The notes: generated by a model from the sequence alone, not told the origin. A stretch of 64,000 nt of DNA from an uncultured bacterium (GCA_963705505.1 CAVPJU010000010.1:384001-448000), one strand, 5' to 3'; counted from the stretch's first letter, positions 12,999 through 35,264 are shown. Made by a program: numbers and translations.

Positions 12999-13409
12999 TT
13001 AAAGCGTGAAATAAGGAGGCGACCTTAAAGGTAGTGAAGTAAGGAACAGTACATCGGAGGGAGGCTCCATTTTATCGAACAGAGTTTCCCAGTATGGATT
13101 GATCAAAGGACGGTTAAAAATCTTAAATGCGATTTTTGAAAATATTCTGGATTGCTTTTGTACGCTATCTTGAGCTAGATTTAGTCTGGGATCTTCATTT
13201 ACGAATACGAGATCCATATCCTGGTCGTCGGCGTCGTTATCTTCAACACCGCATTTATCTCGTTTGTCCAGGGTCAATACCGAGGTGTCATAGCTTGAGC
13301 CAGTCTGCCAGAGATCCTCCTGGACATCCTGTTGCAAACTAGCCAGTCTGAATGTGCCGGTAAAAACGATTAAAGCTAAAAAAGTTAATGATCTGGTTAT
13401 ATTACTCAA
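12999..13409 (-). CDS. putative leader/arrest peptide with N-terminal hydrophobic segment and C-terminal LRSPP
   Basis: 136-aa ORF (TTG start), hydrophobic LTFLALIVF, acidic patch, ends LPLRSPPYFTL; stop 73 nt before the fabF ATG. Confidence 0.6.
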   Translation of the reverse strand: MSNITRSLTFLALIVFTGTFRLASLQQDVQEDLWQTGSSYDTSVLTLDKRDKCGVEDNDADDQDMDLVFVNEDPRLNLAQDSVQKQSRIFSKIAFKIFNRPLINPYWETLFDKMEPPSDVLFLTSLPLRSPPYFTL

Positions 13410-13710
13410 ACAAGTGGTTTCCTGAGACTCCGGAATAAAGACATATTTTCTTTCTAAATATTACTCCTAAGTTTACTTGCTAATTTTTCTTAGGAGAATA
13501 AAGTATTTTACTTAATTGTCAAGATAAATATTTCCCCGGTAACGATCTGACCCGCCCCATCAGGCCACCGTATTTAAGTCCATCTTTTGAGTTATTTCTT
13601 TCACTATGAGCCTCTCAGAAGGGAAATAATTTGGGTGATGAAATAGAGTTGTCTCCGGATAGGAAATGGCCTTGATTTACTGAGAATTTATAATAAGCTA
13701 ACAGCATTAA

Positions 13711-13785
13711 GCCGACGTAGCTCAGTGGTAGAGCAGCTCACTCGTAATGAGCAGGTCGGAGGTTCAAATCCTCTCGTCGGCTCCA
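13711..13785 (+). tRNA. tRNA-Thr(CGT)
   Basis: GCCGACG/CGTCGGC acceptor stem, GCTCA-CTCGTAA-TGAGC anticodon arm, GGTTCAAATCC T-arm, encoded CCA. Confidence 0.97.
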
Positions 13786-13973
13786 ATGAAAACTGTGGGT
13801 TACGTAAATATTCACTAAATAACATCAACCGCTAAATTTGTTACGTCATCAAACTCTTTATCTTAAGTAAATATTTAAACGTAACCTCTTTCATGAAATC
13901 AGCAAGCTTGGAATTTATAGACAGGTATTTACCAATATTTAATTGGTCTCAGGAATTTCATAATCTTGGTTAA

Positions 13974-15125
13974 TTAGTGGTCATGCATATATATCATTTT
14001 AAGATCCCAATTTTTTGCATCGAGTAAATCCAAACCTTGAAATTCAATTTTATTATTATGTTTGCCGATTGGTCGAATCAAAATAGTTCGAGGAGGGTCT
14101 TTTACGCTTTTTGCCGAATTGTTGTCGTTAAATCCTTGTGATACTAAAAATTCATAGCTATCTTGGTCCAATATATTTGCCCAAATTGATATTGATCCGG
14201 AATTCATTAGCGATATCAAAGATTTCAGCAGCTCAATTTTTATTGAGGAGTTGGTTGCTTCTAATTCTAATATATTATGTGTGCCTCCGGATTCCACACT
14301 GTATAAATGGCTTTGTAATACCAGATAGCCTTTTAAGCCGTCATCGTACCAGTATAGGAAAAGATATTTTGAAAGCGGGTTATTGTATCTCCAACGGAAG
14401 TACGCTTCATCTCGTACCAGGGTGATTTTATTTTCTGGAATTGTACTTCTAACGAGAATAGCCATTTCCGCCGGTTTGGGTTTATTGTCTAACAAAATAT
14501 GGGGAGGCAGCTGAGTCCTCGTGTTGTGATAAATCATATCGATTCTTTCTGAATTGTCTCTTTTTCTCCTTTTTAAGATCATGTTGATCCCGGTTTTTCT
14601 CAATAATTTTCTAGCGTATGGACCCGCTAATTTCTTGGCGAGTGCGATCGCATTTGATCCTTTACTTTGGAATTGTTTATTAATGATTTTAATTTCTCCG
14701 ATGCTCTTCCAACCCATGAATAAAGAAATTATGGCATTTGAGGGCGTTGCATTGAAACTTAGAATGTATTGAACGCCCATCTTTTCCAAATCGTCCATGA
14801 CGAAGTCCGCTAGCTCTTTATATATTCCTTTGTTTCTGTATTCCTCGAGTATTAACAAATCCGCACCACATAACGCATTAAATCTTGATGATGCGCTTTT
14901 TAGCTGCCATGTTGTTTCATACGCGCCTCTCATGGCTACGACCTCTTCTCCGTCACGAACAAAATATATTATGGGTGGTTTAGAATGAGGTCGATCTATG
15001 TAGTTCCATTTTACATAGGATCTGAACACATCTAAGTCCAGACCCCAGTTGATTGTTTTGAGTCTGGCGATTTGATCTATATGGTTTTCAAAGTCGTCAG
15101 AATATTTTAATATTACACGGTCCAT
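13974..15125 (-). CDS. GNAT-family acyltransferase (likely two GNAT-like domains)
   Basis: DLLILEEYRNKGIY motif A; RDEAYFRWRY-NP motif opening the second domain. Confidence 0.8.
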   Translation of the reverse strand: MDRVILKYSDDFENHIDQIARLKTINWGLDLDVFRSYVKWNYIDRPHSKPPIIYFVRDGEEVVAMRGAYETTWQLKSASSRFNALCGADLLILEEYRNKGIYKELADFVMDDLEKMGVQYILSFNATPSNAIISLFMGWKSIGEIKIINKQFQSKGSNAIALAKKLAGPYARKLLRKTGINMILKRRKRDNSERIDMIYHNTRTQLPPHILLDNKPKPAEMAILVRSTIPENKITLVRDEAYFRWRYNNPLSKYLFLYWYDDGLKGYLVLQSHLYSVESGGTHNILELEATNSSIKIELLKSLISLMNSGSISIWANILDQDSYEFLVSQGFNDNNSAKSVKDPPRTILIRPIGKHNNKIEFQGLDLLDAKNWDLKMIYMHDH

Positions 15126-15163
15126 TTTGGTGTAGTTGAATCAGTGTTGGTTGTATTGAAAAG

Positions 15164-15424
15164 TTATGGTTTGCAATCCTTTACGAAATTTAAAATGCCA
15201 TTTATGGTGTCCCATTCAATAGTGAAGTCCAAAATCGTCAGCTCCAATGGAGAGCCGACTTCCTCCTCCACCAGTAACGCCAGCTCAAGTAATTGCAGAG
15301 ATTCTAAAAGACCTGAAGTTATAAGTGGTGTGTTATCGTCGTAGTTTTCAGGAATGGATTTCCCTGAGTCTTTAATTTTAGCATCGATAAAGTCTATGAG
15401 TCTTTGTCTTAAATGTTCTGACAT
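15164..15424 (-). CDS. acyl/peptidyl carrier protein
   Basis: 86 aa, acidic; PLITSGLLESLQLLEL (GxxDSL-like Ppant Ser); WDTINGI. Confidence 0.85.
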   Translation of the reverse strand: MSEHLRQRLIDFIDAKIKDSGKSIPENYDDNTPLITSGLLESLQLLELALLVEEEVGSPLELTILDFTIEWDTINGILNFVKDCKP

Positions 15425-15434
15425 CTGAAAGTTC

Positions 15435-16442
15435 TTAGTCCGACGTGTCGAGCTCCTTCCAGCTTACTTGTTTTGCCATTGCGACGACGACCTTTCTCTT
15501 GCCGGAGAATGGCTTCCTGCCGTGAGCGACGAGCATATTGTCGAGCATAAGGACATCTCCAGGTTCCCATCTGAAAGCAATTGTCGCAGCATCGTAGGCT
15601 TTCCGCAGTTCTTCAATCACGTCTTTACTGATGCTCGTTCCGTCGCCGTAGTATGTATTGTTCGGCAAATCCTTCTCTTTGAATAATTTAAGAAGCATTT
15701 TCTGCAACTTGGGCTCAATTGCGAATACATTAAGCAGGGTGGCGTGATTCATCCACAATAACTCTCCTGTAACGGGATGCTTCGCAATTGCCGGCCTCAG
15801 CTGCTTAGTTCTTACTTTGTTCTCGTCTATCCAATCATAATCTGTTTCGGATTCTTTACAGAACCTCTCCATCTCGGCTTTATCCTGTGTTTGGTATACT
15901 TCCTGCCACGTGAAGCCGAACGGTCCTCCGCTCAAGTTCCTCACATATAAAACACCTTTTTCCTCGAAACGTTTCCTGATCGAGGGGTCGATTTGCTTGT
16001 ATACCCGCCTCACGTCCGCTATGGGTGTTTCCCCTCCTTTCTCCGCGGATTCGATGCAGTAAAAGAAAATTCTCATCGGGAATTGTGCTGCGAAAGAGTG
16101 TTCGTTATGTAGAATGATCTCAAGTTCTGGAGGGAAATCTGTGGCGGTATAAATCTTTCCCTGGACCTGAGTTCTGTGTGTGATTCTGTCGTTATAATCG
16201 ATCAAGCTGCCGTAACTGCTTTCCACCGTAGCTTCGAAGTCTTCGACCCCGCCTACCTTAAACCCTCTGAATAATATGCCGCCGTATTTTAATAAATTTG
16301 TTTCTATTTCCTTTTGGTTTGCTTTGAAAAACTCTCTTATCGGTAAATCTTGGTGCTTTGGAGTAATCACAAGCGGCAGTTTTTTCTCTTCGTCAATAAA
16401 TCCTGTAAGAATTTCAACGTTTTCACCAAATCCAACTGTCAT
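15435..16442 (-). CDS. TauD/TfdA-family Fe(II)/2OG dioxygenase, SyrP-like
   Basis: LPLVITP, GGILFRGF, HNE (HxE), GGETPIAD, DNMLVAHGR. Confidence 0.9.
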   Translation of the reverse strand: MTVGFGENVEILTGFIDEEKKLPLVITPKHQDLPIREFFKANQKEIETNLLKYGGILFRGFKVGGVEDFEATVESSYGSLIDYNDRITHRTQVQGKIYTATDFPPELEIILHNEHSFAAQFPMRIFFYCIESAEKGGETPIADVRRVYKQIDPSIRKRFEEKGVLYVRNLSGGPFGFTWQEVYQTQDKAEMERFCKESETDYDWIDENKVRTKQLRPAIAKHPVTGELLWMNHATLLNVFAIEPKLQKMLLKLFKEKDLPNNTYYGDGTSISKDVIEELRKAYDAATIAFRWEPGDVLMLDNMLVAHGRKPFSGKRKVVVAMAKQVSWKELDTSD

Positions 16443-16638
16443 ACTCTACTCCTATCTTCAAACTTCGAGAATAAGAATAAGTAGTGTAGAATCACACAAT
16501 TCTTAACTACTTTTCGATAAGTTTGATGATCTAGGGTATTTATACATGAATTGTACAACGTTATTTACATTTATCAAAGATTCCTACAAACGCGAACCAC
16601 TGTCTGTTTCCCTCCTCTATAAGTTGCATAATATCGAG

Positions 16639-16687
16639 TGACCTGCCTCCTATAATCGGACCATAGTATAAGTTAGATTTTCGATAA
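16639..16687 (+). repeat. IS3-family (IS407-like) terminal-repeat-like remnant, copy 1
   Basis: TGACCTGCC-N3-TATAAT...ATAAGTTAGATT...GATAA; 41 of 50 aligned columns match the copy at 20662. Confidence 0.5.
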
Positions 16688-16955
16688 CGAACCCTATATA
16701 CAGGAGGTCATCGGGAGGGTGCGGTCAACCTTGACGCACACTTTTCCTTCTCCTTACTTATACGTAATTATAGACATAAAATCACCTCGGCTTTAGCTAC
16801 AAAATAAGTAAAAATAAGTAAACTAGCTGGTTTCAAAACTCGCAAAACCCTAATGTTTCGCTTGTATACTACGTAAAGTAAGTCAAGACCTTGAAAACAA
16901 GAGATATTTTGTCATGACTCGTAGTTCTTACACACACATCTTAAAACAGTCGTAC

Positions 16956-17005
16956 GCTCACTCGTAATGAGCAGGTCGGAGGTTCAAATCCTCTCGTCGG
17001 CTCCA
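16956..17005 (+). repeat. att direct repeat: 3' 50 bp of tRNA-Thr
   Basis: identical to 13736-13785. Confidence 0.95.
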
Positions 17006-17286
17006 AATTAAACCAAGAACTTACAACGCATGTATTAAGTAGCCTTAGCAGTGTTTTCATCCGATATCGTGAGATGTCCCATGAAACGAGCTTCTATAGA
17101 CTTATAGGAGAAGTCTTACTTAATTGCTTTTTTCTCCTACAAGCAAATTATCCCCTGTTTGCGGAGTGTTGCAGCTTTACAGAGGTATGTCATTGGTATG
17201 TGCTGACAAAAAACTACTTGCGGTGAGATAATACGAATAGAAAACTTTAATTAATAAAATGGGTGATTTTCAGATAGATTATTCGA

Positions 17287-17757
17287 ATGACCACACAGCA
17301 AAATCAACCAACAAATTTAAGCCTGAAGGAATTAAAAAAGCTCCGCAAACCTGTTCGCAATATCAATATCGAACATAAAGAAAGCCTTAGTCGTCTTCAA
17401 AAATTTGCAGTCTGGATAACCGAGCATGTGGGCACCATGGGTTTCTTCCTGATAATCTTTGCTTGGAGCTTATCATGGCTTTGCTGGAATGCATTGGCAC
17501 CGAAAGAATTAAGATTTGACCCTTACCCAGGTTTTATTCTTTGGCTTTTCATATCCAACATGATTCAGATTCTTCTGCTGCCCCTTATCATGATAGGCCA
17601 AAATTTACAGGGTCGTCATTCTGAAGCGAGGGCTGAAGCTGATTACGAGGTAAACACTATTGCGGAGAGAGAAATTGAAGCCATTCTCCAACATTTGGAA
17701 AATCAAAACGAGTTAATAGTGAAAATACTCAATCATCTGGAACAGGATAAACCCTAA
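17287..17757 (+). CDS. DUF1003 family membrane protein
   Basis: VGTMGFF, FDPYPGFILW, PLIMIGQN, RAEADYEVN..AEREI. Confidence 0.88.
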   Translation: MTTQQNQPTNLSLKELKKLRKPVRNINIEHKESLSRLQKFAVWITEHVGTMGFFLIIFAWSLSWLCWNALAPKELRFDPYPGFILWLFISNMIQILLLPLIMIGQNLQGRHSEARAEADYEVNTIAEREIEAILQHLENQNELIVKILNHLEQDKP

Positions 17758-17770
17758 AATGAAGTTGTTA

Positions 17771-17790
17771 TTTTTTCGGTTGCCGAAAAA
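17771..17790. terminator. possible bidirectional terminator hairpin
   Basis: TTTTTCGG-TTG-CCGAAAAA between convergent genes. Confidence 0.4.
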
Positions 17791-17799
17791 CCCCTTTCC

Positions 17800-19282
17800 T
17801 TACCCCGCCCTCTTAAAGTCGATATATCCGCGCTCCACATCCGTGCGGACCAGTTGCACGCGGAGCCTGTGGCCGACGTCCAGCCTTCAAAACCGCTCAC
17901 CAGTCTTCCTTCAATGGGCGGATGCAGAAGACGGACCCACGTGCCTTTGTCAGATGCGCCGGTGACGATGGCATCGAACTGCTCTCCGATCCTCGATTCC
18001 AGCAGCATTGCTGCGGCGGATTTTCCGACCTGCCGTTCGACTCTTCTTGCGCTGCGTCTTCCTGCTTCGGTGCAGTGCTTTGCGAGCGCCTCCAATTCAT
18101 CGTTCTCATAGGGCGGGGAACGTCCCGCCATTGCTGCTTTCAGCAACCGCTGCGTGATCAGATCGGGGTATCGGCGGTTCGGGGCGGTGGAGTGAGCATA
18201 GTCCTTGACCGCAAGACCGAAGTGCCCGGCGACACTTGCCTCCCGGAAGTTCGACGACGTATTCACCGCGCCCAAGCAGCTTGATGACGCTGAGGGAAAG
18301 ATCGGGAAAGCGGAGAGGATCGGCGGCTTTCGCCGATACCAGGAATTGCTCCAGGGCCTTTGAGTCGGGCTCCTGGGGCAACGTGAAGCCCCGCTCTGCG
18401 GCAAGCTCGACGATCCGGTCCCAGCGTTTGGGCGTGCGGACAACGCGCCGCAGCGACGGAAACATTTTGGACGCGAGGTATCGTGCGGTAACGCCGTTGG
18501 CGGCGATCATGAAGTCCTCAATAATGATCTTTGGCCCTGTTCTTTCTTTCGGCTTCCAAGTCCTTGAGCTCATCTCCGTCAAATACCGGACGCGCTTCGA
18601 TTGTTTCGAGATCAAGCGCACCGTGCAGGTGCCGGAGGGCCTTCAGTTTTTGGGCCACGCGGTCCTGGAGTCGAAGGTTCTCGTCGAGACCGTCGACCGC
18701 TGCCGATCCCTTGCGGCATCGGCCCGTTACCCTCCAGCCAGCCGGCCAACGCTGTTGTAGGCAAGCTTTGCACGATTGCGGACCGTCGCTCCATAAATGT
18801 CCGAACTCTGAAGCGATCCATCCCCGGCGACGACCATTTCAATGACGATGGCAAGGCGGTCTGATTCATAGTTGAGAGAGGTAAGATCGGTCGAGAGTTT
18901 CTCGGGCAGCATCGGAAATATCTCGGCAGCGGTGTAGACCGAGGTGGTGTTTTGCCGCGCATGATCGTCAAGTGCCGACTGCTTCTTGACGACCGCGTCA
19001 ACATCGGCAATGGCGACAAGGATCTTTGCGGCCCCTTCGGGCATGGCTTCGGCAACGGTAAGCTGGTCCAGATCGCGCGAATCATCGTTGTCGATGGAGC
19101 ACCAGAGAAGGTTTCTGAGATCACGCGTCGATTCCTCAGCTCGCGTCGCAGGCCCGTGGATTCCGTCGAGCTCGGCGAGCGCCTCGAGCGGAAAATCCGG
19201 AACAAGTCCTCTTTCAAGCATCGCCCGATCGGGCAATTCTTTGCAAGATGGAGCGGTGTTGTCTGTCGTCTGTGTCCGTCAT
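17800..19282 (-). pseudogene. RNB-domain exoribonuclease (RNase II/R family) with about 7-8 indels
   Basis: GGAGG RBS then MTDTDDRQ; SIDNDDSRDLDQ, IEDFMIAAN and HFGLAVKDYAHSTAPNRRYPDL occur in different frames; ends GYIDFKRAG*. Confidence 0.88.
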
Positions 19283-19551
19283 AATTTCACCTCCCTAAAA
19301 AATTACCTCGCCATTTACGCTCTGATAACGTAAACCATAATAATTATTCCTAGCCCAGTATAATCGCGATTATCTGTTTATAGAACTGCCGGAGACATGT
19401 AACACATGTTGTGCACAACATAAGAATATTATAACGCTAAGGTTGGCAGCAGTCGTGGAAACCTATGGAACTTTAGGCCCACAGACCAACGTTTAACCTT
19501 GCTCGATATAAACACGCCAGGATTGATTGTAGTGGTTTACTACTGCTGTGA

Positions 19552-19707
19552 CTATCTAGTAAAATATTTGCCAGCCCTGAGCATATCCCTACAGTATTGA
19601 AACGTCCTATTCCAACTCTCTCTGAGTGGGGGATGATTTCAGCCGCCGCGGGATTGGCCGGAGTTTTCTTCGCGGTGAGGAGAAGAAAGGCTGCCGTGAA
19701 CACATAG
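19552..19707 (+). pseudogene. orphan or degraded IPTL-CTERM sorting-signal fragment
   Basis: reads RPIPTLSEWGMISAAAGLAGVFFAVRRRKAAVNT*; in-frame TGA at 19549-19551 upstream. Confidence 0.7.
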
Positions 19708-19982
19708 AATGAGAAAAAAGCGAATAAAGCGAACTAACCACCATTACCTCGGTAAGGGGAAGCAAGCCTTTTCTCCGCGCTCTTATGGTGATATAATTAA
19801 TATACCTTTACTCATAGGTACTCTTGACTAAGCCCCTAACCATATTCCTCCCGAACGTTGGCCTGGGGCTTCCTATTAATGCAGCACCCTCTCTGGCTTT
19901 CAGGGAATTGACATAAGTTTAATTCCATGCAAATGTAATATTAAAGAGTTCATTTAATTCAGCTGTGCTAGGAGGGTTAATT

Positions 19983-20177
19983 ATGAGGAAAATTATCGCA
20001 ATTACAGCCGTTATCGTTTTATCTGGCGCAGATGCGTTTGCGGGCACCGTAGTTCCTCTACCAATATTAAACGTCCCCACCCTTAGCGAATGGGGGATAG
20101 TCGGCGCAGTAATGGTATTGGGGCTTGTCGGCGTTTTCTACCTCGTAAGACGTAAAAAGCACGGCTGCTGCAGCTGA
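19983..20177 (+). CDS. minimal IPTL-CTERM protein (signal peptide + ~10 aa + VPTLSEWG-TM-RRKK)
   Basis: GGAGG RBS; MRKIIAITAVIVLSGADAFA|GTVVPLPILNVPTLSEWGIVG...RRKKHGCCS. Confidence 0.8.
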   Translation: MRKIIAITAVIVLSGADAFAGTVVPLPILNVPTLSEWGIVGAVMVLGLVGVFYLVRRKKHGCCS

Positions 20178-20661
20178 AGCCTCGGATCACGTCCGCTATG
20201 GTCCGGACGGCTTCCCCTCAGTACAATTACTCTATTCATTGTTACGCTTGCGGATTAGGCGGACTGGCCCCTTATTTTAGAAATACCTGGTACGAATTAA
20301 CCCCCTCTTTCCTGCTTAGAATGGGGCCTTCGCCCTTAATATCCCTTCCCGGTTTATTGTATAACTGGGGGACAATATAGCCCGCCTCATACCCCACGGT
20401 CTTTCATAGCCAGAGGCCCCCGACCCCATTGTAAGTTCATGCCAAAAGATTCTACTGGCACTAATTAATATAATGTTCTAGAATATTAGTTAGAATAAAC
20501 ATGGAGGTTATGGTGGCTACAAAAAAAGCCTTCCTCAAGCACCTAGGTAATAGGAAATGGAGAAAAGTTAGTAATTCAATGATCACTATGCGAAAAAACT
20601 ACCTGATATATGCAGGGAACAGGAAATGGAAGAGAAAAGAAGGAGGAATTGAGAGAGCGGC

Positions 20662-20711
20662 TGACCTGCCCCCCTATAATAGGCCCTTGGAATAAGTTAG
20701 ATTGTTGATAA
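20662..20711 (+). repeat. IS3-family (IS407-like) terminal-repeat-like remnant, copy 2
   Basis: TGACCTGCCCCCCTATAATAGGCCC...; homologous to 16639-16687; ends 16 nt before the USP ATG. Confidence 0.5.
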
Positions 20712-20727
20712 GGGAACAACAATTATT

Positions 20728-21657
20728 ATGAGAGAAATAAAAAAGATAATATGGGCTAGTGATGGTTCAAAGGAATCCGAGGAAGCTCTAAACTATGCTG
20801 TATTTCTTGCCCAAATCTTCAACTCCGAAATAATAGGAATCTTTGTAATCGAATTGCATCCAAGACTACTATACGACTATGCCAGAGACCCTGATAGCGA
20901 ACTCTATAAATGGGTGGAAGAAGCAGCCGAATACCACAAGTCAAGACTTACTACGAAAGCTAAAAATTTGGGTATTCCATGGATTCCTTTCCGAGAAACA
21001 GTTTTAATTGGAGAACCGAGTGAGGAGATCGTTAAAGTTGCACGTCGGAAAAAGGCCGACCTCATAGTGATGGGGGTACGAGGACTAGGTCTTATTGACA
21101 GGATGCTTGTCGGAAGCACTGCTCTCAAAGTTTTAAGACAATCCCATATACCTGTTCTTACTGTTAAGAAAAGGGATAAAGAGAGTACAATAGACATACG
21201 TAATATCCTTGTTCCATTGGACATATATGAAAAAGAAGATTCCGCTCTAAATTATGCAATTGATTTAGCACAAAAGATAAAAGCAAATATATCGGTTGTG
21301 TATGGCTATAGGCTGTTTGCTTACGCCACGCTTGAAATCGGAAAACCCCCGGTTGGAATAAATGAATTAGGGGAGGATGCACTAAAGTTTTTTTCCACTG
21401 AACTTACAACGAGGGTCGATGAGGCATTAAGGATTAAGACCGACAAAAAAGAAACTGATAAATTGGAGATCAACACAGACTTAATTGAGGGAATAAACCC
21501 TTCAATGAGGATAGTTGAGTATGCGGCTAGTAAGAATATGGATCTAATAGTGATAAATACTCACGGAAGAAAGGGGATTAAGAAGTTTATGTTGGGAAGT
21601 ATAACAGAGAAAATAATTCAAGAATCTCCTTGTGCGGTACTAGCACTAAGACCATAA
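20728..21657 (+). CDS. universal stress protein with tandem USP domains
   Basis: KKIIWASDGS...ADLIVMGVRG...VGSTA and RNILVPLD...DLIVINTHGRKG...LGSITEK. Confidence 0.95.
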   Translation: MREIKKIIWASDGSKESEEALNYAVFLAQIFNSEIIGIFVIELHPRLLYDYARDPDSELYKWVEEAAEYHKSRLTTKAKNLGIPWIPFRETVLIGEPSEEIVKVARRKKADLIVMGVRGLGLIDRMLVGSTALKVLRQSHIPVLTVKKRDKESTIDIRNILVPLDIYEKEDSALNYAIDLAQKIKANISVVYGYRLFAYATLEIGKPPVGINELGEDALKFFSTELTTRVDEALRIKTDKKETDKLEINTDLIEGINPSMRIVEYAASKNMDLIVINTHGRKGIKKFMLGSITEKIIQESPCAVLALRP

Positions 21658-26767: not shown

Positions 26768-26842
26768 TGCAGTAAGCAAGAACGAACGGTCTATCCCTAA
26801 ATTGAAAGCGCATGAAAACCAATTATAATTGAGGTCAATCAA

Positions 26843-28366
26843 ATGGCGTCAGATATTAAAACCCCTCCTCTAACTATAATAGGTATCGATGCAGGCGACC
26901 CCGGATTCATAGAAGAGTGGGCCGGGCAAGGTCATCTGCCGATTATTTCCTCCATCATGAAAAACGGGTTCTGGGGAAAAACAGCGGGACCGGAGCTGGT
27001 CACCGAGCACGGAGTATGGATCTCGCTTTTGAGCGGCATCTCCCGGGGCGGGCACGGGTACTATTATTTCAGGCAGCTAAAGCCCGGATCATACGAGCTG
27101 GAATCGGTTACGGGACTCGACATAGACGCTCCGCCGTTCTGGTCATATCTGATCGGCACGAATAAGAAATCTCTTATTATCGACGCCGCCGACACACGTC
27201 TTTATAGGGGGCTGCCCGGAATCCAGGTTGCAAACTGGGCGACTCACCACAATTGGGACCCTTACCATTTTGCTACGGGCTCCGAGCCGCCTGAAATCAT
27301 CGGCGAAATAAGCAGGCTATTCGGGCCCAAGCTTTTAACCATAGAGAACCACGGCAGCACCTTTGAAGAAGATAAAGCGATATACAAAAAGTTATTGGAA
27401 AATGTCAGGAAAAAAGGCGAAATGTGCCGTTACCTCCTCAGGCGGGACAGATTCGACCTCTCCTTAATTATTTTTGCCGAGTCGCATGCGGCGAACCACC
27501 AATTCTGGAAATATCATCCGAAAAACCGAGGGAAAGGCGAAGGAGATTGCGAGCTCACATACGCCATAAGAGATATATACGAGGCCATCGATGCCGAAAT
27601 CGGACGTATAATGGAACTATTCGATAACCCTAATATTTGCATCGTGTCTTCAGTCGGCATGGAAGACGATTACCCGAATGCGGCCCTTGGTGAGGCGTTT
27701 TGCAGAGAACTCGGATATCAGGCCTCGCCCGGACCTGACGGAATATCGCTAAGGCCTATAGATATTGCGCGCAGACTGCTCCCGGAGTCCCTGCGTATTG
27801 CGCTCAGCAAGCGTATGCCGAGGGAAAAGAGAGAGCAACTGGTTTCCGACAGGTTCAGGAGCGGCACGGACTGGAGCCGGACGACCGCATTTTCAATGCC
27901 TGTCTCATATACAAGCTTCATACGCGTTAACCTCAGGGGACGGGAGCCCGAGGGCATTGTTGAACCCGGGGATGAATATCATGCCCTCATCGACAGGATC
28001 GGGGACGAACTAAAAAGGCTGATCGACCCCGTAACAGGAGAGCCGGCAGTGGTCTCCGTTAACAAAACGGTCGAGATCTTTAAGTGCGGCCCTCACAGAC
28101 ATCTCCCGGATATCTTCGTCGAATGGAAGCCAGGAAGCTTCATGGAGCGGGTACTGCACCCCGAAGCCGAGCTAACGCAAAAAAAACCCGAATTCTTCAG
28201 AAGGAGCGACCATTCGTCGTACGGTTTTTTCGCTCTTGCCGGGCCGTCCGTAAGAACCGGGGGGAAAATCGACAATATCGAAGTACTGGACATTGCCCCG
28301 ACTTTCCTGTCACTTTTGGGAGAACCCGTTCCCGGCTTAATGACCGGCCGCGAACTCATCCTCTAG
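26843..28366 (+). CDS. alkaline phosphatase superfamily (nucleotide pyrophosphatase/phosphodiesterase-like) protein
   Basis: IIGIDAG, WISLLSG...HG, IRVNLRGREPEGIV, DIAPTFL. Confidence 0.85.
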   Translation: MASDIKTPPLTIIGIDAGDPGFIEEWAGQGHLPIISSIMKNGFWGKTAGPELVTEHGVWISLLSGISRGGHGYYYFRQLKPGSYELESVTGLDIDAPPFWSYLIGTNKKSLIIDAADTRLYRGLPGIQVANWATHHNWDPYHFATGSEPPEIIGEISRLFGPKLLTIENHGSTFEEDKAIYKKLLENVRKKGEMCRYLLRRDRFDLSLIIFAESHAANHQFWKYHPKNRGKGEGDCELTYAIRDIYEAIDAEIGRIMELFDNPNICIVSSVGMEDDYPNAALGEAFCRELGYQASPGPDGISLRPIDIARRLLPESLRIALSKRMPREKREQLVSDRFRSGTDWSRTTAFSMPVSYTSFIRVNLRGREPEGIVEPGDEYHALIDRIGDELKRLIDPVTGEPAVVSVNKTVEIFKCGPHRHLPDIFVEWKPGSFMERVLHPEAELTQKKPEFFRRSDHSSYGFFALAGPSVRTGGKIDNIEVLDIAPTFLSLLGEPVPGLMTGRELIL

Positions 28367-28508
28367 CCGGATTATTATATTTACATACGGCCGGTTGCGT
28401 TAATCCGAAACAAGGTGTTAGTCTATGTTAGAAATGCGGGCATAAATCAGCAGGTACAGATGCGGACATCCATGTTCAGAGAAAGTTTCAAATGCCGTTC
28501 TTAAACCC

Positions 28509-29999
28509 TTGATGATTGACGAAAAAACGGAACCCAAACATTCTACAGGCGCACGTCACATGCTCGACGGGACGATCCGCGTGTTCCTCTCGGAATCGCT
28601 CCTGATACCGACGGGACTTATTACCACCATATTCCTCACGCGCATTCTGGGACCCGAGAGCTACGGAATTTACGGCCTGGCAGTAGGCATAGTGCTCTGG
28701 ATCGAATACAGCGTCTGCAATATGTTCGGCGGAACGAGCATAAAGTTCATAGGAGAAACAGACGACTGGGAGCCTATCGCGACGACTGTGCTCAAATTGT
28801 ATTTGATAGTCAGCGCTGCGGCAGTGATAGCGTTGTGGCTGGTATCCGGAGAAATAGCGAAACTACTGAATGCCCCGAAATTGGGGTCGTACCTCTCACT
28901 GCTGGCGATAGACATACCGATTTTTGTTCTTTCTACCGCGCACCGGCACATACTCGTAGGGTTAGGAAAATTCAGGGCGAGAGCCCTGACAAGCGCCGTG
29001 CGCTGGTTAAGCAGACTGGTTCTGATCGTGGTACTTGTCGAGATCGGGCTTTCGGTCGAAGGCGCCATACTGGGAATAATAGCCTCGTCGCTCCTCGAAT
29101 TGATAATAGTCCGCTCATACATCCGCCCTCCTATATTCAAGCATTCCGATTTTGATACACGGAAGCTGTGGGGCTTTGTAGCTCCTCTATTCTTATTTTC
29201 GATAAGCATGAGACTCTACGACAAGCTGGATTTGCTGCTTTTAAAAGGTCTGGGAGGCACGGCGGAGCAGGCGGGTATTTATGTCGCGGCACAGAATTTA
29301 TCTATCGTTCCGGGTCTTTTCGCACTTTCATTCTCTCCTCTGCTGCTGGCGACAATAAGCAGGACCATCAGTTCCGGCAATAAGGCGTCGGTCGCGCATC
29401 TGGTAGAGACGTCGTACCGGATTGTGATCTTGTTTTTACCCTTCGCCGCTATGACGGCGGGCTGTTCGAATGAAGTCGTCAAGCTTATACTAGGACCCGA
29501 ATATGAAGGATCGGCCCCGCTCCTGTCGCTTCTTATCTTCGGTTCAATAGCCACGATTTTCATATCGGTAAACTACGCAGTACTCACTGCAAGCGGTAAA
29601 CCGGGATTGCCGTTCTTGCTCGCGGGTCCGATCGTACCCTTATCCATTCTCGCTTATTTCTTCGTGATTCCGAAGTTCGGAATGATCGGGGCATCTTTCG
29701 TTTATACGTCTTTTGCGTGGCTCGGGGCTGTCGTAACTATCACCGCGGTTTATTATCTCTGGCAAACTTACCCCCCGGGAAAAACTATCTTATGGAGTGT
29801 CTTAATCTCGGTAGCTGCGTATATCGCCGCTCAGATGTGGAGCACCCCCGGGTTATTGGTTATCGTTAAAGTGTGCGTAATAACCTTAATTATTTTAGTC
29901 TGTTATTTCATAACAAACGCAGTTAAAATAAGCGAGATTCGGCTCCTCAGCTCGGGATTGATAAGCCGCGACGTTATAACAAAAAATACGGAAACGTGA
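28509..29999 (+). CDS. Wzx/MOP-type oligosaccharide flippase
   Basis: LTRILGPESYGIY, DKLDLLLLK, AGIYVAA, IPKFGMIGAS; many TM segments. Confidence 0.88.
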   Translation: MMIDEKTEPKHSTGARHMLDGTIRVFLSESLLIPTGLITTIFLTRILGPESYGIYGLAVGIVLWIEYSVCNMFGGTSIKFIGETDDWEPIATTVLKLYLIVSAAAVIALWLVSGEIAKLLNAPKLGSYLSLLAIDIPIFVLSTAHRHILVGLGKFRARALTSAVRWLSRLVLIVVLVEIGLSVEGAILGIIASSLLELIIVRSYIRPPIFKHSDFDTRKLWGFVAPLFLFSISMRLYDKLDLLLLKGLGGTAEQAGIYVAAQNLSIVPGLFALSFSPLLLATISRTISSGNKASVAHLVETSYRIVILFLPFAAMTAGCSNEVVKLILGPEYEGSAPLLSLLIFGSIATIFISVNYAVLTASGKPGLPFLLAGPIVPLSILAYFFVIPKFGMIGASFVYTSFAWLGAVVTITAVYYLWQTYPPGKTILWSVLISVAAYIAAQMWSTPGLLVIVKVCVITLIILVCYFITNAVKISEIRLLSSGLISRDVITKNTET

Positions 30000-30180
30000 T
30001 CGTGAAGAAAACGTGAGATGTTTTATGGTGAGCATCAAGCATTACCAGCAAACGAATATGATACTCGTGCCGGATGATAGAGCCGTTCGGAGCCGGGCAA
30101 GCAATTTAAAATCCTATGATTATCAATAGGGTCCTTCTCCATTGGTCTTCATGGCTTACACCCCTTTCTAACAATGATTT

Positions 30181-31068
30181 ATGATGAGCAACGATAAACC
30201 GGTGTTTTCAATTATCATACCCACCTACGGAAGACCCAGGCAGTTAAGAGAGTGCCTTGACTCGATTACCGGTCTCGAGTATCCCAAAGATAATTTTGAA
30301 GTGATCGTGATAGATGACGGCAGCAAAACCTCGCTCGGAGACATCGTCGGGGCATTTCAGAAAAAGATCAACGTGAAACTTTTCAGGCAGGATAATGCGG
30401 GGCCGGCGACCGCGAGAAACAGAGGCGCAGAGGAATCGAGCGGCAAATACCTCGCATTTACCGACGATGACTGCAAACCCTCGCCCGACTGGCTCCGGAG
30501 ACTGGAAGAGCTGCTAAACAAGAATCCGGGACTTCTAGTCGCAGGACGGACAGTCAATGATTTACCGGACAACTCCTATTCGACGGCGAGCCAGCTGATT
30601 GCCGATTTCCTTTGTTCCTACTATAACAAAAGGGAGGCCAGGTTTTTAACTTCGAACAACATGGCGCTCTCCAAAGAGCAATTTCTTAAAGTCGGGGGAT
30701 TCGATATAACGTTTCCGCTTGCCGCTGCCGAGGACAGGGAGTTCTGCGACAGGTACCTCTATTGCGGATATAAAACGGTTTATTCCCCGGAAGCTATAGT
30801 GCGCCACGCCCACCCGCTTACTTTAGGTAAATTCTTCAGACAGCATTTTAATTACGGCCAGGGCGCACATAAGTTCCACAATATTCGGGCGAGCCGCAGC
30901 CTGAACGTAATGAAGATTGAACCCATTAATTTTTACACCGGGTTGATACTTTATCCCCGGAAGACTTCATGCCGTTATAAGACCTTGCTCTCTTTGTTAA
31001 TAGCACTATCCCAAGCTGCAAACGCTTCGGGATATTTACTGGCAAAAATAAGCCCGTATATTAAATAA
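30181..31068 (+). CDS. glycosyltransferase family 2
   Basis: SIIIPTY, VIDDGS, NAGPATARN, FTDDDC, AEDREF. Confidence 0.95.
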   Translation: MMSNDKPVFSIIIPTYGRPRQLRECLDSITGLEYPKDNFEVIVIDDGSKTSLGDIVGAFQKKINVKLFRQDNAGPATARNRGAEESSGKYLAFTDDDCKPSPDWLRRLEELLNKNPGLLVAGRTVNDLPDNSYSTASQLIADFLCSYYNKREARFLTSNNMALSKEQFLKVGGFDITFPLAAAEDREFCDRYLYCGYKTVYSPEAIVRHAHPLTLGKFFRQHFNYGQGAHKFHNIRASRSLNVMKIEPINFYTGLILYPRKTSCRYKTLLSLLIALSQAANASGYLLAKISPYIK

Positions 31069-31159
31069 ACCGAACGACAGCCCGATTGCACTCATGCTAA
31101 ATCAGTTACATCTCCATAATATTAAATATTCGAGAATCGACCCGAATCCGCTCCTAGTC

Positions 31160-31203
31160 AAGAAAGCCGCCCTTTCCCCCGGGTTAATGGGGAAAAGAGC
31201 GGC
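31160..31203 (-). terminator. probable intrinsic terminator downstream of the CsbD-family gene
   Basis: GCCGC..TTTCCCC / GGGGAAA..GCGGC stem followed by TTTCTT on the minus strand. Confidence 0.5.
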
Positions 31204-31248
31204 CAGAGGTATGGGGTAAATAGGTCAGAAAACACAACTCAAACCAGC

Positions 31249-31446
31249 TCAATGGTTTTTAGACCAGTTATCGGCAGCCTTTTGAGCCTGCTCTTTCGTG
31301 TACCCGTATCTCTCCTGTAACTTTCCTACGAGCTGATCGCGTTTGCCGTTTATGACATCGAGATCATCGTCCGTCAGCTTTCCCCATTTTTCCTTCGCCT
31401 TTCCCTTAAGCTGCATCCAGTTACCTTGTACTTGGTCCCAGTTCAT
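31249..31446 (-). CDS. CsbD/YjbJ family stress protein
   Basis: MNWDQVQGNWMQLKGKAKEKWGKLTDDDL...LVGKLQERYG. Confidence 0.95.
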   Translation of the reverse strand: MNWDQVQGNWMQLKGKAKEKWGKLTDDDLDVINGKRDQLVGKLQERYGYTKEQAQKAADNWSKNH

Positions 31447-31484
31447 TTATATCACCTCCCATTTTCTTCGATGTCGATTGTTAT

Positions 31485-31727
31485 TTATTGCATTACCCCG
31501 CGTCGTCCGAGAATCAGAGAGATTACAAAAAGCACGAAGAAAACCAGTAATAGAATTTTTGCTGTCCAAGCCGCAGCAGCTCCAATTCCAGTGAATCCCA
31601 GCACTACGAGAATCAGCGTAATCATCAGAAAAGTGAATGCCAACAACGCGATTATCAGGAAAGTAACCGATAACCCGAATACTACTGCGACATCCCTGAT
31701 GGTAATTGCTTTCTTCATGTCAATCAT
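31485..31727 (-). CDS. DUF1328 family small membrane protein (extended N-terminus, start uncertain)
   Basis: LGFTGIGAAAAWTAKILLLVFFVLFVISLILGRR. Confidence 0.75.
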   Translation of the reverse strand: MIDMKKAITIRDVAVVFGLSVTFLIIALLAFTFLMITLILVVLGFTGIGAAAAWTAKILLLVFFVLFVISLILGRRGVMQ

Positions 31728-32424
31728 AAGGGCAACATGCGTGCCAACTTTCGGGAGATGAAGATAATTTTTAAAATTCAGAGTGAGTTATAATCCATTT
31801 TAATATCTATGATGTGACAGGAATTAACCCGGATTGTTCCATTCCAGACAGTGTTTATTGGAGATTCTCAAACAACGTCGACAAAATTGACTTTAGTTCG
31901 ATAGTCGTTCGAGGGAATAATTCAGATACCGAATTATGGTATATAAAATGAGTAACGGGTTACCTCTCACGGTGCATGCAAGAGCGGTGGATTTTCGAAT
32001 ATCACAACCCGCTCATGCAGTGATTATTCAGGCTTCGCTACTCATAATTTCCCCCAGATCTCTCCCGATAAATAATCAATGGATTCTTGACGCTAAGTTA
32101 TACTCGTGTATCTTAATTATGCCGACTTTGACATTCATTATCATATCGAGTCTTTTGAAACAATGTATCCAGCTCATCGAAATATCAGGCCCGAAGATTC
32201 CGGTTCAGTCATCATAGATAATGCTGCGCGGCGGAAGATTTCAACTCCAACATTTTACGAGCATCTCACGGATCGAAAACCGATTCGTAGGAATTAATTT
32301 TTTCACGCATACTTTTATCAGCGATTGAGGAAAGGATTGTTTAGGATATGATTATGATAGAACCGTTATACTTTCAAACTAAAGCTGCTAACTTAAAGTG
32401 ACCGGACTTACGAGGTGACCGAAT

Positions 32425-33078
32425 ATGGAGAGTTTAAATTTACTGGAGCTGGTTAAACAGGGCTGGATCGCCACCTACCCTCTTATTCTATGCTCCGTTG
32501 TTATGGTAGCTATCCTGGGGGAAAGAATATTCGCTTTCAGCGGAATAGCTTCTTCCACACGAAAGCTCACGAGCCTAATAGTCCCCCCACTGACGAGAGG
32601 CGACTTCAATACCGCGCTCTCGGTATGCAATAAACACAGGAAAAGTTTACAGGCAAGACTTTATCATTCCATCCTCGCGGAAGAGACCAGAATAAATCCC
32701 ATCGATGTGACAGAGCGTTTGGAAGACAACAGGTACGAGGAGGTCCAGGACCTAAAGCAAAATATCTGGGTACTCGGAACTATAGCCAGCAGCGCCCCGT
32801 TTATCGGCCTTTTCGGGACTGTCATGGGTATCATCAAATCCTTCCATAGTATGTCCATAGCCGGAACGGGCGGATTCTCCGTTGTAGCGGGCGGGATTTC
32901 GGAAGCGCTCGTCGCAACCGCCGCGGGACTCATCGTGGCTATCATCGCTGTCGTTGCGTACAATTATCTGCAAATTAAAATCGCGGGTATTAACGCAGAG
33001 CTGAAAATCAACCATTCCAAATTCATCCAGGCTTATAAACAGGGGAGTATGAACTACCATGGCGATCGGGAAATTTGA
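32425..33078 (+). CDS. exbB: MotA/TolQ/ExbB proton channel protein
   Basis: LGTIASSAPFIGLFGTVMGII...GISEALVATAAGL. Confidence 0.9.
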   Translation: MESLNLLELVKQGWIATYPLILCSVVMVAILGERIFAFSGIASSTRKLTSLIVPPLTRGDFNTALSVCNKHRKSLQARLYHSILAEETRINPIDVTERLEDNRYEEVQDLKQNIWVLGTIASSAPFIGLFGTVMGIIKSFHSMSIAGTGGFSVVAGGISEALVATAAGLIVAIIAVVAYNYLQIKIAGINAELKINHSKFIQAYKQGSMNYHGDREI

Positions 33079-33478
33079 GGAAAAGACGGACGAGGATATC
33101 GTAGCGGAAATTAATATTACGCCGCTCACGGACATATTCCTCGTACTGCTGATTATTTTCATGATCACGAGCTCGGCGCTTATCGAATCCGGCGCGAACA
33201 TAAAACTCCCCGAAGTCTCGAAAACCGAGACGGTATCGAGAAACGTCGTGGTAACCCTCACCACGTCCGGGCAAATATTCATCAACCAGAAAGAGATCAA
33301 CAAGAATGCGTTCGAAGAGGAATTAAAAAAAGCCCTATCCGAAAGCAACACCAAAGTCGTCATACTCGAAGGAGACAAGGACGCGCTTCTCGGCGACGCG
33401 GTCAAACTGATTAGCCAGGCAAAGGATGCCGGAGCCAAAGAGATAGCTATCGCCGCAGAAAAATCGCAGACACCCTGA
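33059..33478 (+). CDS. exbD: ExbD/TolR biopolymer transporter
   Basis: EINITPLTDIFLVLLIIFMI. Confidence 0.92.
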   Translation: MAIGKFEEKTDEDIVAEINITPLTDIFLVLLIIFMITSSALIESGANIKLPEVSKTETVSRNVVVTLTTSGQIFINQKEINKNAFEEELKKALSESNTKVVILEGDKDALLGDAVKLISQAKDAGAKEIAIAAEKSQTP

Positions 33479-33494
33479 ACCCGGAGAAAATCGC

Positions 33495-34238
33495 ATGCTC
33501 TCCTCGCGGCTAAAAGCATTCATAATACTGTCACTGATACTACACGCCGCGGGCTTCGGTCTGGTCGCTTTCCTCACACCCGGAGAAGTGGACGAAAAAG
33601 CTCAGCCGCTCACGGTCGGCGTCACCACACAGTATGCCGATCCCGGGAAAGGAAAAGGGAACTCGCTCGCCCCCGCACCAATGAATCAACCCGAGCCTGA
33701 AAAAAAAGAAGTGAAGCCCCCCGAGAAGAAGGCTTTTAAGAGAGTCGTCAGGAAAACGCCGGCTAAGGAACCCGAAAAGAAAGAGATAATAAGCCGGGAT
33801 AATAACCCTGTTAACGAGCAAACGGCAGTGACGAGCGCGATCTCGTCCTCCGCAAACACCGGAGAGACGGACAACGTTTCGCCCGGGGGCACTCAGAAAG
33901 GGAGCGGAATCGGAGACAGGGGTACGGGGCTCGATACAAAGGGTTCCGGCAACGGCACTGAAATCGGCTATCCGAATTATGGACTTAACCCCAAACCTAC
34001 TTATCCCACGATAGCGAAGCGGCACGGGTATGAGGGACTCGTCGTCCTTAACGTTTTCGTCCTTGAGAGCGGAAACGTGGGAAAGATAGAAATACGGAAA
34101 TCTTCCGGATATGACGTGCTCGACAATTCCGCGCTCGATGCAGTAAGGAACTGGGTATTCATTCCGGGAAAGAGGAACGGTCAGGCGATGTCGAGCTGGG
34201 TAGTAGTACCGATAAGGTTCGACCTCACTAACGGTTAA
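33495..34238 (+). CDS. tonB: energy transducer TonB
   Basis: N-terminal TM with SxxxH, Pro/Lys/Glu-rich linker, YPTIAKRHGYEG...SSGYDVLDNSA C-domain. Confidence 0.92.
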   Translation: MLSSRLKAFIILSLILHAAGFGLVAFLTPGEVDEKAQPLTVGVTTQYADPGKGKGNSLAPAPMNQPEPEKKEVKPPEKKAFKRVVRKTPAKEPEKKEIISRDNNPVNEQTAVTSAISSSANTGETDNVSPGGTQKGSGIGDRGTGLDTKGSGNGTEIGYPNYGLNPKPTYPTIAKRHGYEGLVVLNVFVLESGNVGKIEIRKSSGYDVLDNSALDAVRNWVFIPGKRNGQAMSSWVVVPIRFDLTNG

Positions 34239-34402
34239 GTTCGATATTAGTCCCGAAGGCGGGATTAACATGACGAATTAACAGCCGCCGATAAATCTTT
34301 ACTACACCTTACCGAACCAAGCATGCCGCACTCATAATAATTGAGCCGGGATAGTATGACAAATAAATTCCGCTTGATATCGCGAAAACATAACTTACAC
34401 TA

Positions 34403-34828
34403 TTGTTACTAGAGCGTCTGAGCCAATCGATGAAAAGATTTTGCGCTTTAGAAAATCCGCGGGAATTCAGTATTAAACAACCAATAATACTTTTGTTATA
34501 TATCAGCCTTATCGGCGTTATTTCACATTACGCCTTACCCCCCGCGTCCATGGGGGAAATACGGCATCCGAGACCTATACACCTTCATGACAACATCAAT
34601 TACCCGAATTATATGGTAGAGGGAGACAATTTTATCCTCGACGACGAAACCACCAATGACTCCGATACTAAAAAAACGTTTATTCTGTTTCTTACCTTAG
34701 TTGCCAGTCTCATGACATCTTCCGAGCCCGGGTCGAAACGCGGCGCATTAAAAAGCTCGGTAAATTCGTTACATTACGATTCGACATTCGGGTATTCCCA
34801 CTTAAGATCACCTCCGTTGATCAAATAA
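34403..34828 (+). CDS. putative leader/arrest peptide with hydrophobic segment and C-terminal LRSPP (start 34403 TTG or 34430 ATG)
   Basis: IILLLYISLIGVI segment, acidic LDDETTNDSD, ends SHLRSPPLIK. Confidence 0.6.
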   Translation: MLLERLSQSMKRFCALENPREFSIKQPIILLLYISLIGVISHYALPPASMGEIRHPRPIHLHDNINYPNYMVEGDNFILDDETTNDSDTKKTFILFLTLVASLMTSSEPGSKRGALKSSVNSLHYDSTFGYSHLRSPPLIK

Positions 34829-35253: not shown

Positions 35254-35264
35254 GTAAACTTTCC

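Follow-up and report, generated by a model that had tools for sequence, protein, structure and literature searches.

A lineage-restricted family of small membrane-anchored proteins with an invariant RSPP ending as candidate ribosome-arrest leaders in an uncultured bacterium

Two small open reading frames (ORFs), designated ORF1 and ORF2, are located in a stretch of 64,000 nucleotides (nt) from an uncultured bacterium (GCA_963705505.1, CAVPJU010000010.1:384001-448000; this whole stretch is called the window, and positions are counted from its first letter). Both are real genes, and profile homology identifies them as paralogues of one family of small proteins that end a few residues behind an invariant RSPP tetrapeptide. 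Judged by analogy with published arrest peptides of the RAPP type, the members of this family are probably ribosome-arrest leaders which would free the strong Shine-Dalgarno (SD) sequence of the next gene. A preliminary description, made from the sequence of the window, had presented the two ORFs as attenuator leaders in which one short stretch acts both as peptide arrest signal and as SD-complementary (anti-SD) RNA. Both ORFs are present by translation at the positions it gave, as are the hydrophobic N-regions, the Asp/Glu patches, LRSPP three to four residues before the stop, the CCT-CC codons and the downstream SD boxes; only the start of ORF2 had to be moved. The features of the two leader proteins are the following:

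12999-13409, minus strand: ORF1, PLRSPP-family leader protein with a TTG start, 136 residues (from translation)
13350-13391, minus strand: N-terminal hydrophobic segment of ORF1, residues 7-20, SLTFLALIVFTGTF (read from the translation)
13212-13244, minus strand: acidic patch of ORF1, EDNDADDQDMD, residues 56-66 (read from the translation)
13014-13025, minus strand: R-S-P-P codons of ORF1, AGG TCG CCT CCT, followed by four further codons and the stop codon TAA (12999-13001)
34430-34828, plus strand: ORF2, PLRSPP-family leader, 132 residues from ATG
34475-34534, plus strand: membrane helix of ORF2, residues 16-35 (AlphaFold model)
34658-34720, plus strand: second hydrophobic helix of ORF2, residues 77-97 (AlphaFold model)
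34640-34666, plus strand: acidic patch of ORF2, DDETTNDSD, residues 71-79 (read from the translation)
34763-34816, plus strand: conserved C-terminal block of ORF2, NSLHYDSTFGYSHLRSPP
34805-34816, plus strand: R-S-P-P codons of ORF2, AGA TCA CCT CCG

The C-terminus of ORF1 reads ...SLPLRSPPYFTL, with LRSPP four residues from the stop, and that of ORF2 reads ...YSHLRSPPLIK, with LRSPP three residues from the stop. In relatives of the same genus, at about 70% nucleotide identity, both frames are open and RSPP is kept, the ORF1 relative ending in LPLRSPPYCPL and the ORF2 relatives in YSHLRSPPSK and YSPLRSPPSIK; in genome G006, the homologue of ORF1 is an open frame that is 61-62% identical and located 5' of the same fabF gene as here. 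Across genera, the frames stay open at 13-60% identity. The ratio of nonsynonymous to synonymous substitution rates (dN/dS, Nei-Gojobori) is 0.21-0.41 over seven pairs, with 0.29 for ORF1 and 0.32-0.33 for ORF2, and purifying selection spans the entire length of the family proteins. For ORF2, an in-frame upstream TTG at 34403 had previously been taken as the start (34403-34828, plus strand); its homologues begin at ATG 34430, and the 132-residue form is more likely. Chance ORFs, or purely RNA-level elements of long intergenic regions, might be suspected in view of the TTG or weak starts, the lack of Pfam, NCBIfam and Rfam matches for ORF1 and ORF2, and the observation that six of the ten RSPP-ending ORFs of the genome are shadow frames, but the frames remain open across genera under the dN/dS values given above, the motif residues survive synonymous codon changes, and ORF1 as well as proteins in the protein library are matched by family profiles (see below). 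This explanation is refuted by these data and retains next to no probability. The pattern exceeds chance, by conservation rather than by counts.

A profile derived from 16 family members, from which the ORF1 pair had been left out, matched ORF1 over its full length with E=7e-12 among 36,179 genome ORFs, although ORF1 and ORF2 are only 13% identical in pairwise comparison. The earlier statement that the two show no obvious overall similarity therefore holds for the pair of sequences but not at the profile level. The profile search of the 36,179 ORFs revealed no third member of the family in this genome. Of 101 genomes of the order, 15 gave a match to a five-sequence profile of the ORF2 type; the match in G061 contains stops and is probably spurious. 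Genome G054 carries three family copies, two of them about 1.8 kb apart on contig C5 (108-470 and 2271-2618) and the third on contig C15, where it is located 5' of a cupredoxin gene. When 1.84 billion representative proteins were searched by profile, 52 matches at E<=1e-3 were found; three of these are long proteins matched in mid-sequence only, and the other 49 are family-sized protein clusters of 32-173 residues. One genome each of 185,579 species was searched with a degenerate DNA pattern modelled on the C-terminal block, which yielded 13 stretches; of these, 11 are known loci, one is a 31-residue chance ORF and one lacks an in-frame LRSPP-stop. The genomes matched by the pattern are metagenome-assembled genomes titled Candidatus Dadabacteria, Thermodesulfobacteriota or Deltaproteobacteria, and two titled Spirochaetia. 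In metagenomes, 80 of 100 stretches matching the pattern were examined, which gave 13 true family members; 16 short chance ORFs showing the motif only were dropped. The 31 family loci considered below comprise 18 from genomes and 13 from metagenomes. ORF1 to ORF4 (for ORF3 and ORF4, see below) have no match in Pfam or NCBIfam, and an Rfam scan of the whole window detected two tRNAs and the signal recognition particle (SRP) RNA only, with nothing in either leader region. The gene of the latter, a bacterial small SRP RNA (46458-46556, plus strand), adjoins a tRNA-Ser(GGA) gene (46223-46314, plus strand).

Protein alignments were made with 18 and with 57 sequences. The 57-row alignment consists of 46 representative proteins and 11 genome sequences, some rows being near-duplicates of genome loci; P0043 (119 residues, a full-length match without the motif), P0053 (a 32-residue fragment) and P0055 (truncated) were left out. 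In both alignments the sole invariant columns are L, R, S, P and P. RSPP is found in 57/57 sequences and PLRSPP in 49/57; the tail after RSPP comprises two to nine residues, with three residues in 41/57. The invariant residues are encoded by varied codons (five for Leu, four for Ser and four for each Pro), so selection acts on the peptide, which supports the view that the RSPP ending is under strong selection at the amino-acid level. An N-terminal hydrophobic segment, defined as a 19-residue window with a Kyte-Doolittle mean of at least 1.6 starting within the first 60 residues, is present in 51/57 sequences. Spacings are narrow across the family, the median distance to the Arg being 52 residues from the acidic patch (interquartile range 49-55) and 89 residues from the end of the anchor (interquartile range 88-93). 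Within the acidic patch of ORF2, D72 and E73 are invariant across the ORF2-type alignment. An AlphaFold model of ORF2, based on the 57-row alignment, contains only the helices 16-35 and 77-97, the remainder being unstructured, including the conserved C-terminal block of about 20 residues; its quality is low (mean predicted local distance difference test score 62.4, predicted template modelling score 0.27). Proteins of this lineage-restricted family are about 130 residues long; a membrane anchor at the N-terminus is followed by an acidic patch that faces the periplasm, and the chain is unstructured apart from these parts. Ordinary small membrane proteins, in which PLRSPP serves the mature product for contacts or processing and SD complementarity is a by-product of Pro-Pro codons facing a strong SD, are an unlikely alternative to arrest leaders. 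They would agree with purifying selection along the whole length, and the conserved patch and anchor spacings could serve a mature protein as well, but a conserved stretch of about 20 C-terminal residues that is unstructured in the ORF2 model speaks against them, as do the results of the following genome scan.

All stop-to-stop ORFs of at least 60 residues in this genome (n=19,098) were scanned for the pattern R[SAG]PP-x(0-6)-stop. Nineteen of them end in this way, and 15 are shadow frames (more than 50% covered by longer ORFs). Only four are stand-alone ORFs, namely ORF1 and ORF2 and the two following ones on contig C6; all four end in RSPP, none in RAPP or RGPP, and all are conserved.

C6 316977-317360, minus strand: ORF3, 128 residues, N-terminally anchored, ending in NRSPPFLIS (open in 14 of 33 family genomes)
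C6 364216-364539, plus strand: ORF4, CruR-like small protein (open in 29 of 33 family genomes)

The ORF1/ORF2 profile gives no match to either ORF3 or ORF4, so that the RSPP-ending design recurs in two further, unrelated families of the same genome. Ten ORF3 homologues end in N or G followed by R-S-P-P and four residues, apart from one RAPP and one KSPP variant, and ORF3 is located 84-91 nt 5' of a gene for a secreted or outer-membrane-type protein. Nine of ten ORF4 homologues end in SRSPP plus two residues, one being longer, and in 10/10 an H...CSAC...HG motif is placed exactly 44 residues before the Arg. ORF4 is flanked by genes for an ABC ATPase and a putative porin of the beta-barrel type; its frame lacks an ATG, GTG or TTG near the start in this genome, and the homologues begin with M. 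In the long ORFs of the genome, R[SAGD]PP occurs twice against 12.9 expected occurrences, an approximately six-fold depletion. The control tetrapeptides ASPP, RSPA, RSAP and RTPP are near expectation, and KSPP (2 vs 3.3) and SRPP (1 vs 3.0) are somewhat low. The depletion is taken as support that R[SAGD]PP is costly outside leaders. For finished membrane proteins, such a depletion elsewhere in the genome would not be expected, nor would it be expected that three unrelated families of one genome share nothing but an N-terminal anchor and RSPP two to four residues before the stop.

Control by RAPP-like arrest leaders is already known; new are the family, its lineage, the fixed Ser and the downstream genes. 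RSPP is described as an arrest-permissive variant of RxPP (PMC7897499, PMC12992588, PMC10951233); random screens have yielded it, proteomes are depleted of it, and it served as a search motif for upstream ORFs (uORFs) of sec and yidC genes (PMC12992588, PMC10987492). The Ala of the motif acts via its backbone, and its exchange for Ser weakens stalling only partly (PMC10951233, PMC7897499). ApdA, ApdP and the 'RQH family', which are encoded 5' of secDF, secA and yidC, resemble the PLRSPP family in that they are small, possess an N-terminal localisation signal, carry R-x-P-P a few residues before the stop, show little other conservation and are encoded just 5' of the regulated gene (PMC7897499, PMC10987492, PMC10951233). 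They differ by having Ala or Gly in place of the invariant Ser, and by regulating Sec or YidC components, which are not encoded by the genes downstream of the PLRSPP family. Neither the family nor its lineage appears in the text of these papers, and literature text searches for PLRSPP and for Dadabacteria with 'arrest peptide' gave nothing relevant; the papers' supplements, which lay outside these searches, could list related ORFs. A survey from 2025 reported small secreted or membrane proteins with RAPP or RGPP 5' of genes of many kinds, some of them related to TonB or copper, and seven of these proteins were tested in Streptomyces lividans (PMC12992588). As in the family described here, these proteins have the motif near the C-terminus, fewer than 300 residues, a signal or transmembrane segment and downstream genes beyond protein localisation, and the proteome depletion of RxPP reported there is also found in this genome. 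The survey as described took RAPP and RGPP only, whereas the four stand-alone cases here are all RSPP, and the second fabF copy, the DUF5666-like small protein and the protein of about 200 residues are unlike the downstream genes it describes.

CruR of Bordetella pertussis (DUF2946) is an exported uORF product with a CxxC motif 45 residues before RAPP and with RAPP three residues from the end; its motif was shown to act during translation, and the output is Rho-dependent termination in a spacer of 162 nt (PMC9426467). ORF4 copies this layout with CxxC 44 residues before RSPP, which argues against a motif that serves only the finished protein. Pfam DUF2946 (PF11162) has no match in ORF4 and its homologues even at E<=10. 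In ORF1 and ORF2 the acidic patch, at a median of 52 residues before RSPP, recalls the fixed distance of the CruR sensor motif, but a CxxC is absent and no PLRSPP-family member matches PF11162. CutF of Rhodobacter capsulatus is likewise a Sec-exported leader with a proline-rich C-terminus, 3' of which a stem-loop shields the next SD and is thought to be opened by a paused ribosome; it differs by a CxxxC copper site (PMC9973294) and by an anti-SD located in the cutF-cutO intergenic stem-loop, whereas the predicted anti-SD here is formed by the leader's own last codons. That arrest codons themselves constitute the anti-SD is a further possible novelty. SecM, MifM and VemP follow the same logic of an arrest that is released by membrane events and exposes a downstream SD (PMC7897499, PMC10951233), with other arrest sequences and other regulated genes.

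In 30 of the 31 loci, the leader stop is followed after 73-165 nt by the start of a gene on the same strand with a strong SD of the GGAGG type, the remaining locus running off the contig edge; an arrangement found at every locus with readable downstream DNA is not one that the finished protein would demand. The features around ORF1 and ORF2 are the following:

11615-12925, minus strand: fabF-type beta-ketoacyl-acyl carrier protein (ACP) synthase II gene (TIGR03150, 615 bits, above the cut-off)
12935-12940, minus strand: Shine-Dalgarno sequence GAGGAG of the fabF copy 3' of ORF1 (fabF ATG at 12923-12925)
13495-13522, minus strand: promoter-like site TTGACA-16-TATTCT 5' of ORF1 (10 of 12 matches)
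34374-34401, plus strand: promoter-like site TTGATA-16-TACACT 5' of ORF2 (9 of 12 matches)
34810-34818, plus strand: predicted anti-SD ACCTCCGTT in the last ORF2 codons (9-bp helix with 34905-34913)
34867-34871, plus strand: additional GGAGG box in the ORF2 spacer, with an in-frame ATG (34876) 4 nt further 3'
34905-34913, plus strand: SD AACGGAGGT of the small secreted protein gene, before ATG 34924
34924-35253, plus strand: small secreted protein gene, 109 residues with signal peptide (conserved partner of ORF2-type leaders by synteny)
35406-35666, plus strand: gene with a TfoX_N domain, after the small secreted protein gene

The downstream partners are a small secreted protein for the ORF2 type, a protein of about 200 residues without a family, a cupredoxin (PF00127, 1.7e-17) and, for ORF1, fabF. 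The family-less partner is frequently succeeded by the small secreted protein, and its leads in the Protein Atlas are unnamed or weak. The small secreted protein 3' of ORF2 has no Pfam match; weak leads are ExtJ (27 bits, below the cut-off) and DUF5666-like clusters of the Protein Atlas. Upstream neighbours differ between loci (TonB, ABC ATPase, VIT1, TonB-receptor plug, peptidase and others), so leader and downstream gene behave as a movable unit. The preliminary description had proposed a design reused across unrelated operons. This is correct for the operons, with fabF, small secreted, ~200-residue and cupredoxin genes following the leaders, but ORF1 and ORF2 are paralogues and therefore not independent cases.

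ORF1 is flanked by a divergent tRNA-Thr gene (13711-13785) and the beta-ketoacyl-ACP synthase gene, which is the second of two fabF copies in the genome and is followed by genes with Pfam matches to HAD, class III aminotransferase, alpha/beta hydrolase and DUF347. The alpha/beta hydrolase is split into overlapping ORFs at 9160-9528 and 8685-9215 (8685-9528, minus strand), which may reflect a frameshift or an assembly error. In the 5' leader of ORF1, an 8-bp hairpin, CUCCUAAG(N17)CUUAGGAG (13462-13494, minus strand), buries an AGGAG sequence and is followed by a mini-ORF of 12 codons, MSLFRSLRKPLV (13406-13444, minus strand), whose stop codon shares nucleotides with the TTG start of ORF1. A promoter-like motif of 28 nt, CTTGACA...TATTC (13496-13523, minus strand), occurs once in this genome; 11 other genomes, which belong to several genera and families, match it at 77-97% identity, some of them with two to three copies. 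It was rejected as a common control element of the leader family, being single-copy here and also present in genera without the family. ORF2 is located after exbB-exbD-tonB and before the small secreted protein gene, and several genomes from two genera share the gene order leader - small secreted protein - TfoX_N. A start at ATG 34876, behind the additional GGAGG box, would add 16 residues to the small secreted protein; the G006 spacer also carries a ACGGAGGT box, without a start codon. One metatranscriptome contig (34736-34886, at least 99% alike) spans the 3' end of ORF2 and the spacer, and two contigs from libraries labelled as complementary DNA (probably DNA; 34668-34975 and 34779-34941) extend to the start of the next gene. 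These contigs reach over 34668-34975 only, and nothing can be concluded from the lack of RNA cover elsewhere in the stretch. Since they give neither strand nor level, they are at most a weak hint at co-transcription of leader and gene.

No terminator-like site was found in 12700-13800 around ORF1 or on the plus strand in 34100-35500 around ORF2, and thus none between leader and gene in either spacer. A classical attenuator of the trpL type, as the preliminary description had assumed, was rejected for this reason, and also in view of leader lengths of 132-136 residues and the missing Rfam match. If there is a control device, it is translational or of the Rho type. In the latter case, RSPP would stall the ribosome, but the output would be Rho-dependent termination or mRNA stability in the spacer, in the manner of CruR or TnaC. 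The spacers of 73-165 nt fit this explanation in the light of the 162-nt spacer of CruR (PMC9426467), as does ORF4, in which the spacer comprises about 215 nt and the partner of the Pro codons is a nearby CCGGAG sequence other than an SD; furthermore, in 17 of 30 loci the SD is not predicted to pair with the region from Arg to stop. We nevertheless regard it as rather improbable that the output is of this kind, given that the helix of anti-SD and SD is the only conserved structure in ORF2-type spacers and that pairing of the SD is predicted in all ten loci of the ORF3 family.

In the favoured arrest-leader model, the RSPP ending would act like the published RAPP-type arrest motifs. In the free mRNA, the 3' end of the leader ORF would pair with the GGAGG SD of the next gene 73-165 nt downstream. 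A ribosome parked at the motif would cover the Pro-Pro codons and the short tail to the stop, possibly also the codons just behind, and, as it would thereby cover the pairing partner, the SD would open and translation of the downstream gene would rise. The duration of the stall might be set by the fate of the N-terminal part of the nascent chain, e.g. membrane insertion or periplasmic binding. The parts of this model that we infer are the stalling, the switch and the signal; the genes, the family with its invariant RSPP, the synteny, the SDs and the complementarity are observed.

For ORF2, ACCUCCGUU (34810-34818) pairs with AACGGAGGU (34905-34913) in the minimum free energy and centroid folds (-33.1 kcal/mol, z -2.45). 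In 11 ORF2-type spacers, RNAalifold returned a 7-bp helix of anti-SD and SD as the only consensus structure, while the approximately 100 nt between its halves are not conserved. All ten loci of the ORF3 family have an SD that is predicted to pair with the region from Arg to stop (P>=0.89). Across 30 family loci, the mean pairing probability of the SD is 0.42 with this region, 0.22 and 0.11 with the two adjoining upstream windows, and 0.02 with the spacer; in a shorter folding context, the S-P-P(+1) codons score above 0.75 in 7/17 loci. Several results weigh against the arrest-leader model. When 90 nt of upstream context are folded, no more than 13 of 30 family loci, representing 8 of 16 lineages, have the SD paired with the region from Arg to stop at P>=0.5, and the pairing flips with the folded length, from 0.95 to 0.00 in G017 and from 0.79 to 0.01 in G057. 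The ORF1 fold is no better than shuffled sequences (z -0.47), its SD lying in a local hairpin; GAGGAG is complementary to CUCCUUA of the leader by seven pairs including one G-U, with a predicted pairing probability of 0.21-0.35. The seven pairs of the helix in the 11 spacers contain no compensatory change (0/7), so that the covariation of RSPP codons and downstream SD which the preliminary description had proposed as a check is not seen. In addition, the SDs of the leaders themselves are weak or absent, and no Sec or YidC components are encoded among the downstream genes of the family.

The caveat in the preliminary description that Pro-Pro codons bring some SD complementarity with them was well placed. 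Synonymous recodings of the last codons still form duplexes with the SD region at a mean of -9.6 kcal/mol, compared with -12.0 kcal/mol observed, and much of the complementarity is therefore inherent. The observed duplex is more stable than the mean of the recoding null in 12/17 loci, with a per-locus fraction below 0.05 in 3/17. This inherent complementarity and the mixed fold results, for ORF1 and over the 30 loci, favour ordinary membrane proteins on the RNA side. A further explanation is plain translational coupling, in which any ribosome on the last codons of the leader melts the SD helix and RSPP merely slows it, with no signal being sensed. It would account for the folds of most loci, in which the last part of the leader ORF is the predicted partner of the SD, and for the slight advantage of cognate over non-cognate leader-SD pairs (1.2 kcal/mol, Wilcoxon p=0.037, 16 lineages), but it leaves unexplained the invariant R and S, the roughly 20 conserved residues before them, the N-terminal anchor and the fixed spacings, and we consider it quite improbable.

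The codon usage of the motif bears on the question whether its RNA is under selection as well. The first Pro codon is CCU in 43/51 loci, which are not independent of each other (14/18 genome loci and 10/13 metagenome loci of the family, 10/10 of ORF3 and 9/10 of ORF4). CCU makes up 17% of all Pro codons, 28.5% at the first position of Pro-Pro pairs of long ORFs and 32% within family ORFs, so that CCT is indeed enriched at this site over a background of 17-32%. The second Pro codon is free in the family (CCG 8, CCU 7, CCC 2, CCA 1), which is what a requirement for CCUCC would leave unconstrained. The Arg codon is AGR in 31/31 loci of the ORF1/ORF2 family, CGR having also been permitted by the metagenome pattern; since ORF3 and ORF4 use CGN, it is not a general feature. 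As all three tRNA-Pro species are encoded in the genome, the CCU preference may also originate from a tRNA-specific effect on stalling. Dual coding as a principle, i.e. peptide arrest and RNA anti-SD in one stretch, receives moderate support: the pairing of RSPP codons as anti-SD is predicted for ORF2 and throughout the ORF3 family, but for not even half of the ORF1/ORF2-family loci, depending on the folding window, and not for ORF1. In ORF2, GATCACCTCC at 34806-34815 is the same sequence as the 16S rRNA 3' end encoded in this genome (GAUCACCUCC, 10/10 identical). A more far-reaching proposal, which we put forward only tentatively and hold to be rather doubtful, is that about 12 nt of RSPP have been shaped at synonymous sites to copy the organism's own 16S 3' end and thus unite arrest signal and anti-SD. 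A ribosome on the RSPP codons would then conceal the anti-SD within its decoding centre. No fewer than three unrelated leader families of the lineage would have taken up this compact switch, and through ORF1, translation of the second FabF copy would respond to the state of the membrane or of protein insertion.

If stalling is confirmed, a lineage-wide Ser-type (RSPP) branch would be added to the RAPP-like arrest peptides, a branch that would have escaped the survey of PMC12992588, which according to its text looked for RAPP and RGPP. One genome would then use a four-residue module in three unrelated leader families, before genes for lipid synthesis, periplasmic and outer-membrane proteins. 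Leader ORFs of this type could be missed or assigned a wrong start in annotation, because their starts are weak and they match no known family. The family also represents a natural test of why Ser, and not Ala or Gly, has been fixed at the second position, and of whether or not the codon choice of an arrest motif has been co-opted to hide the SD of the next gene.

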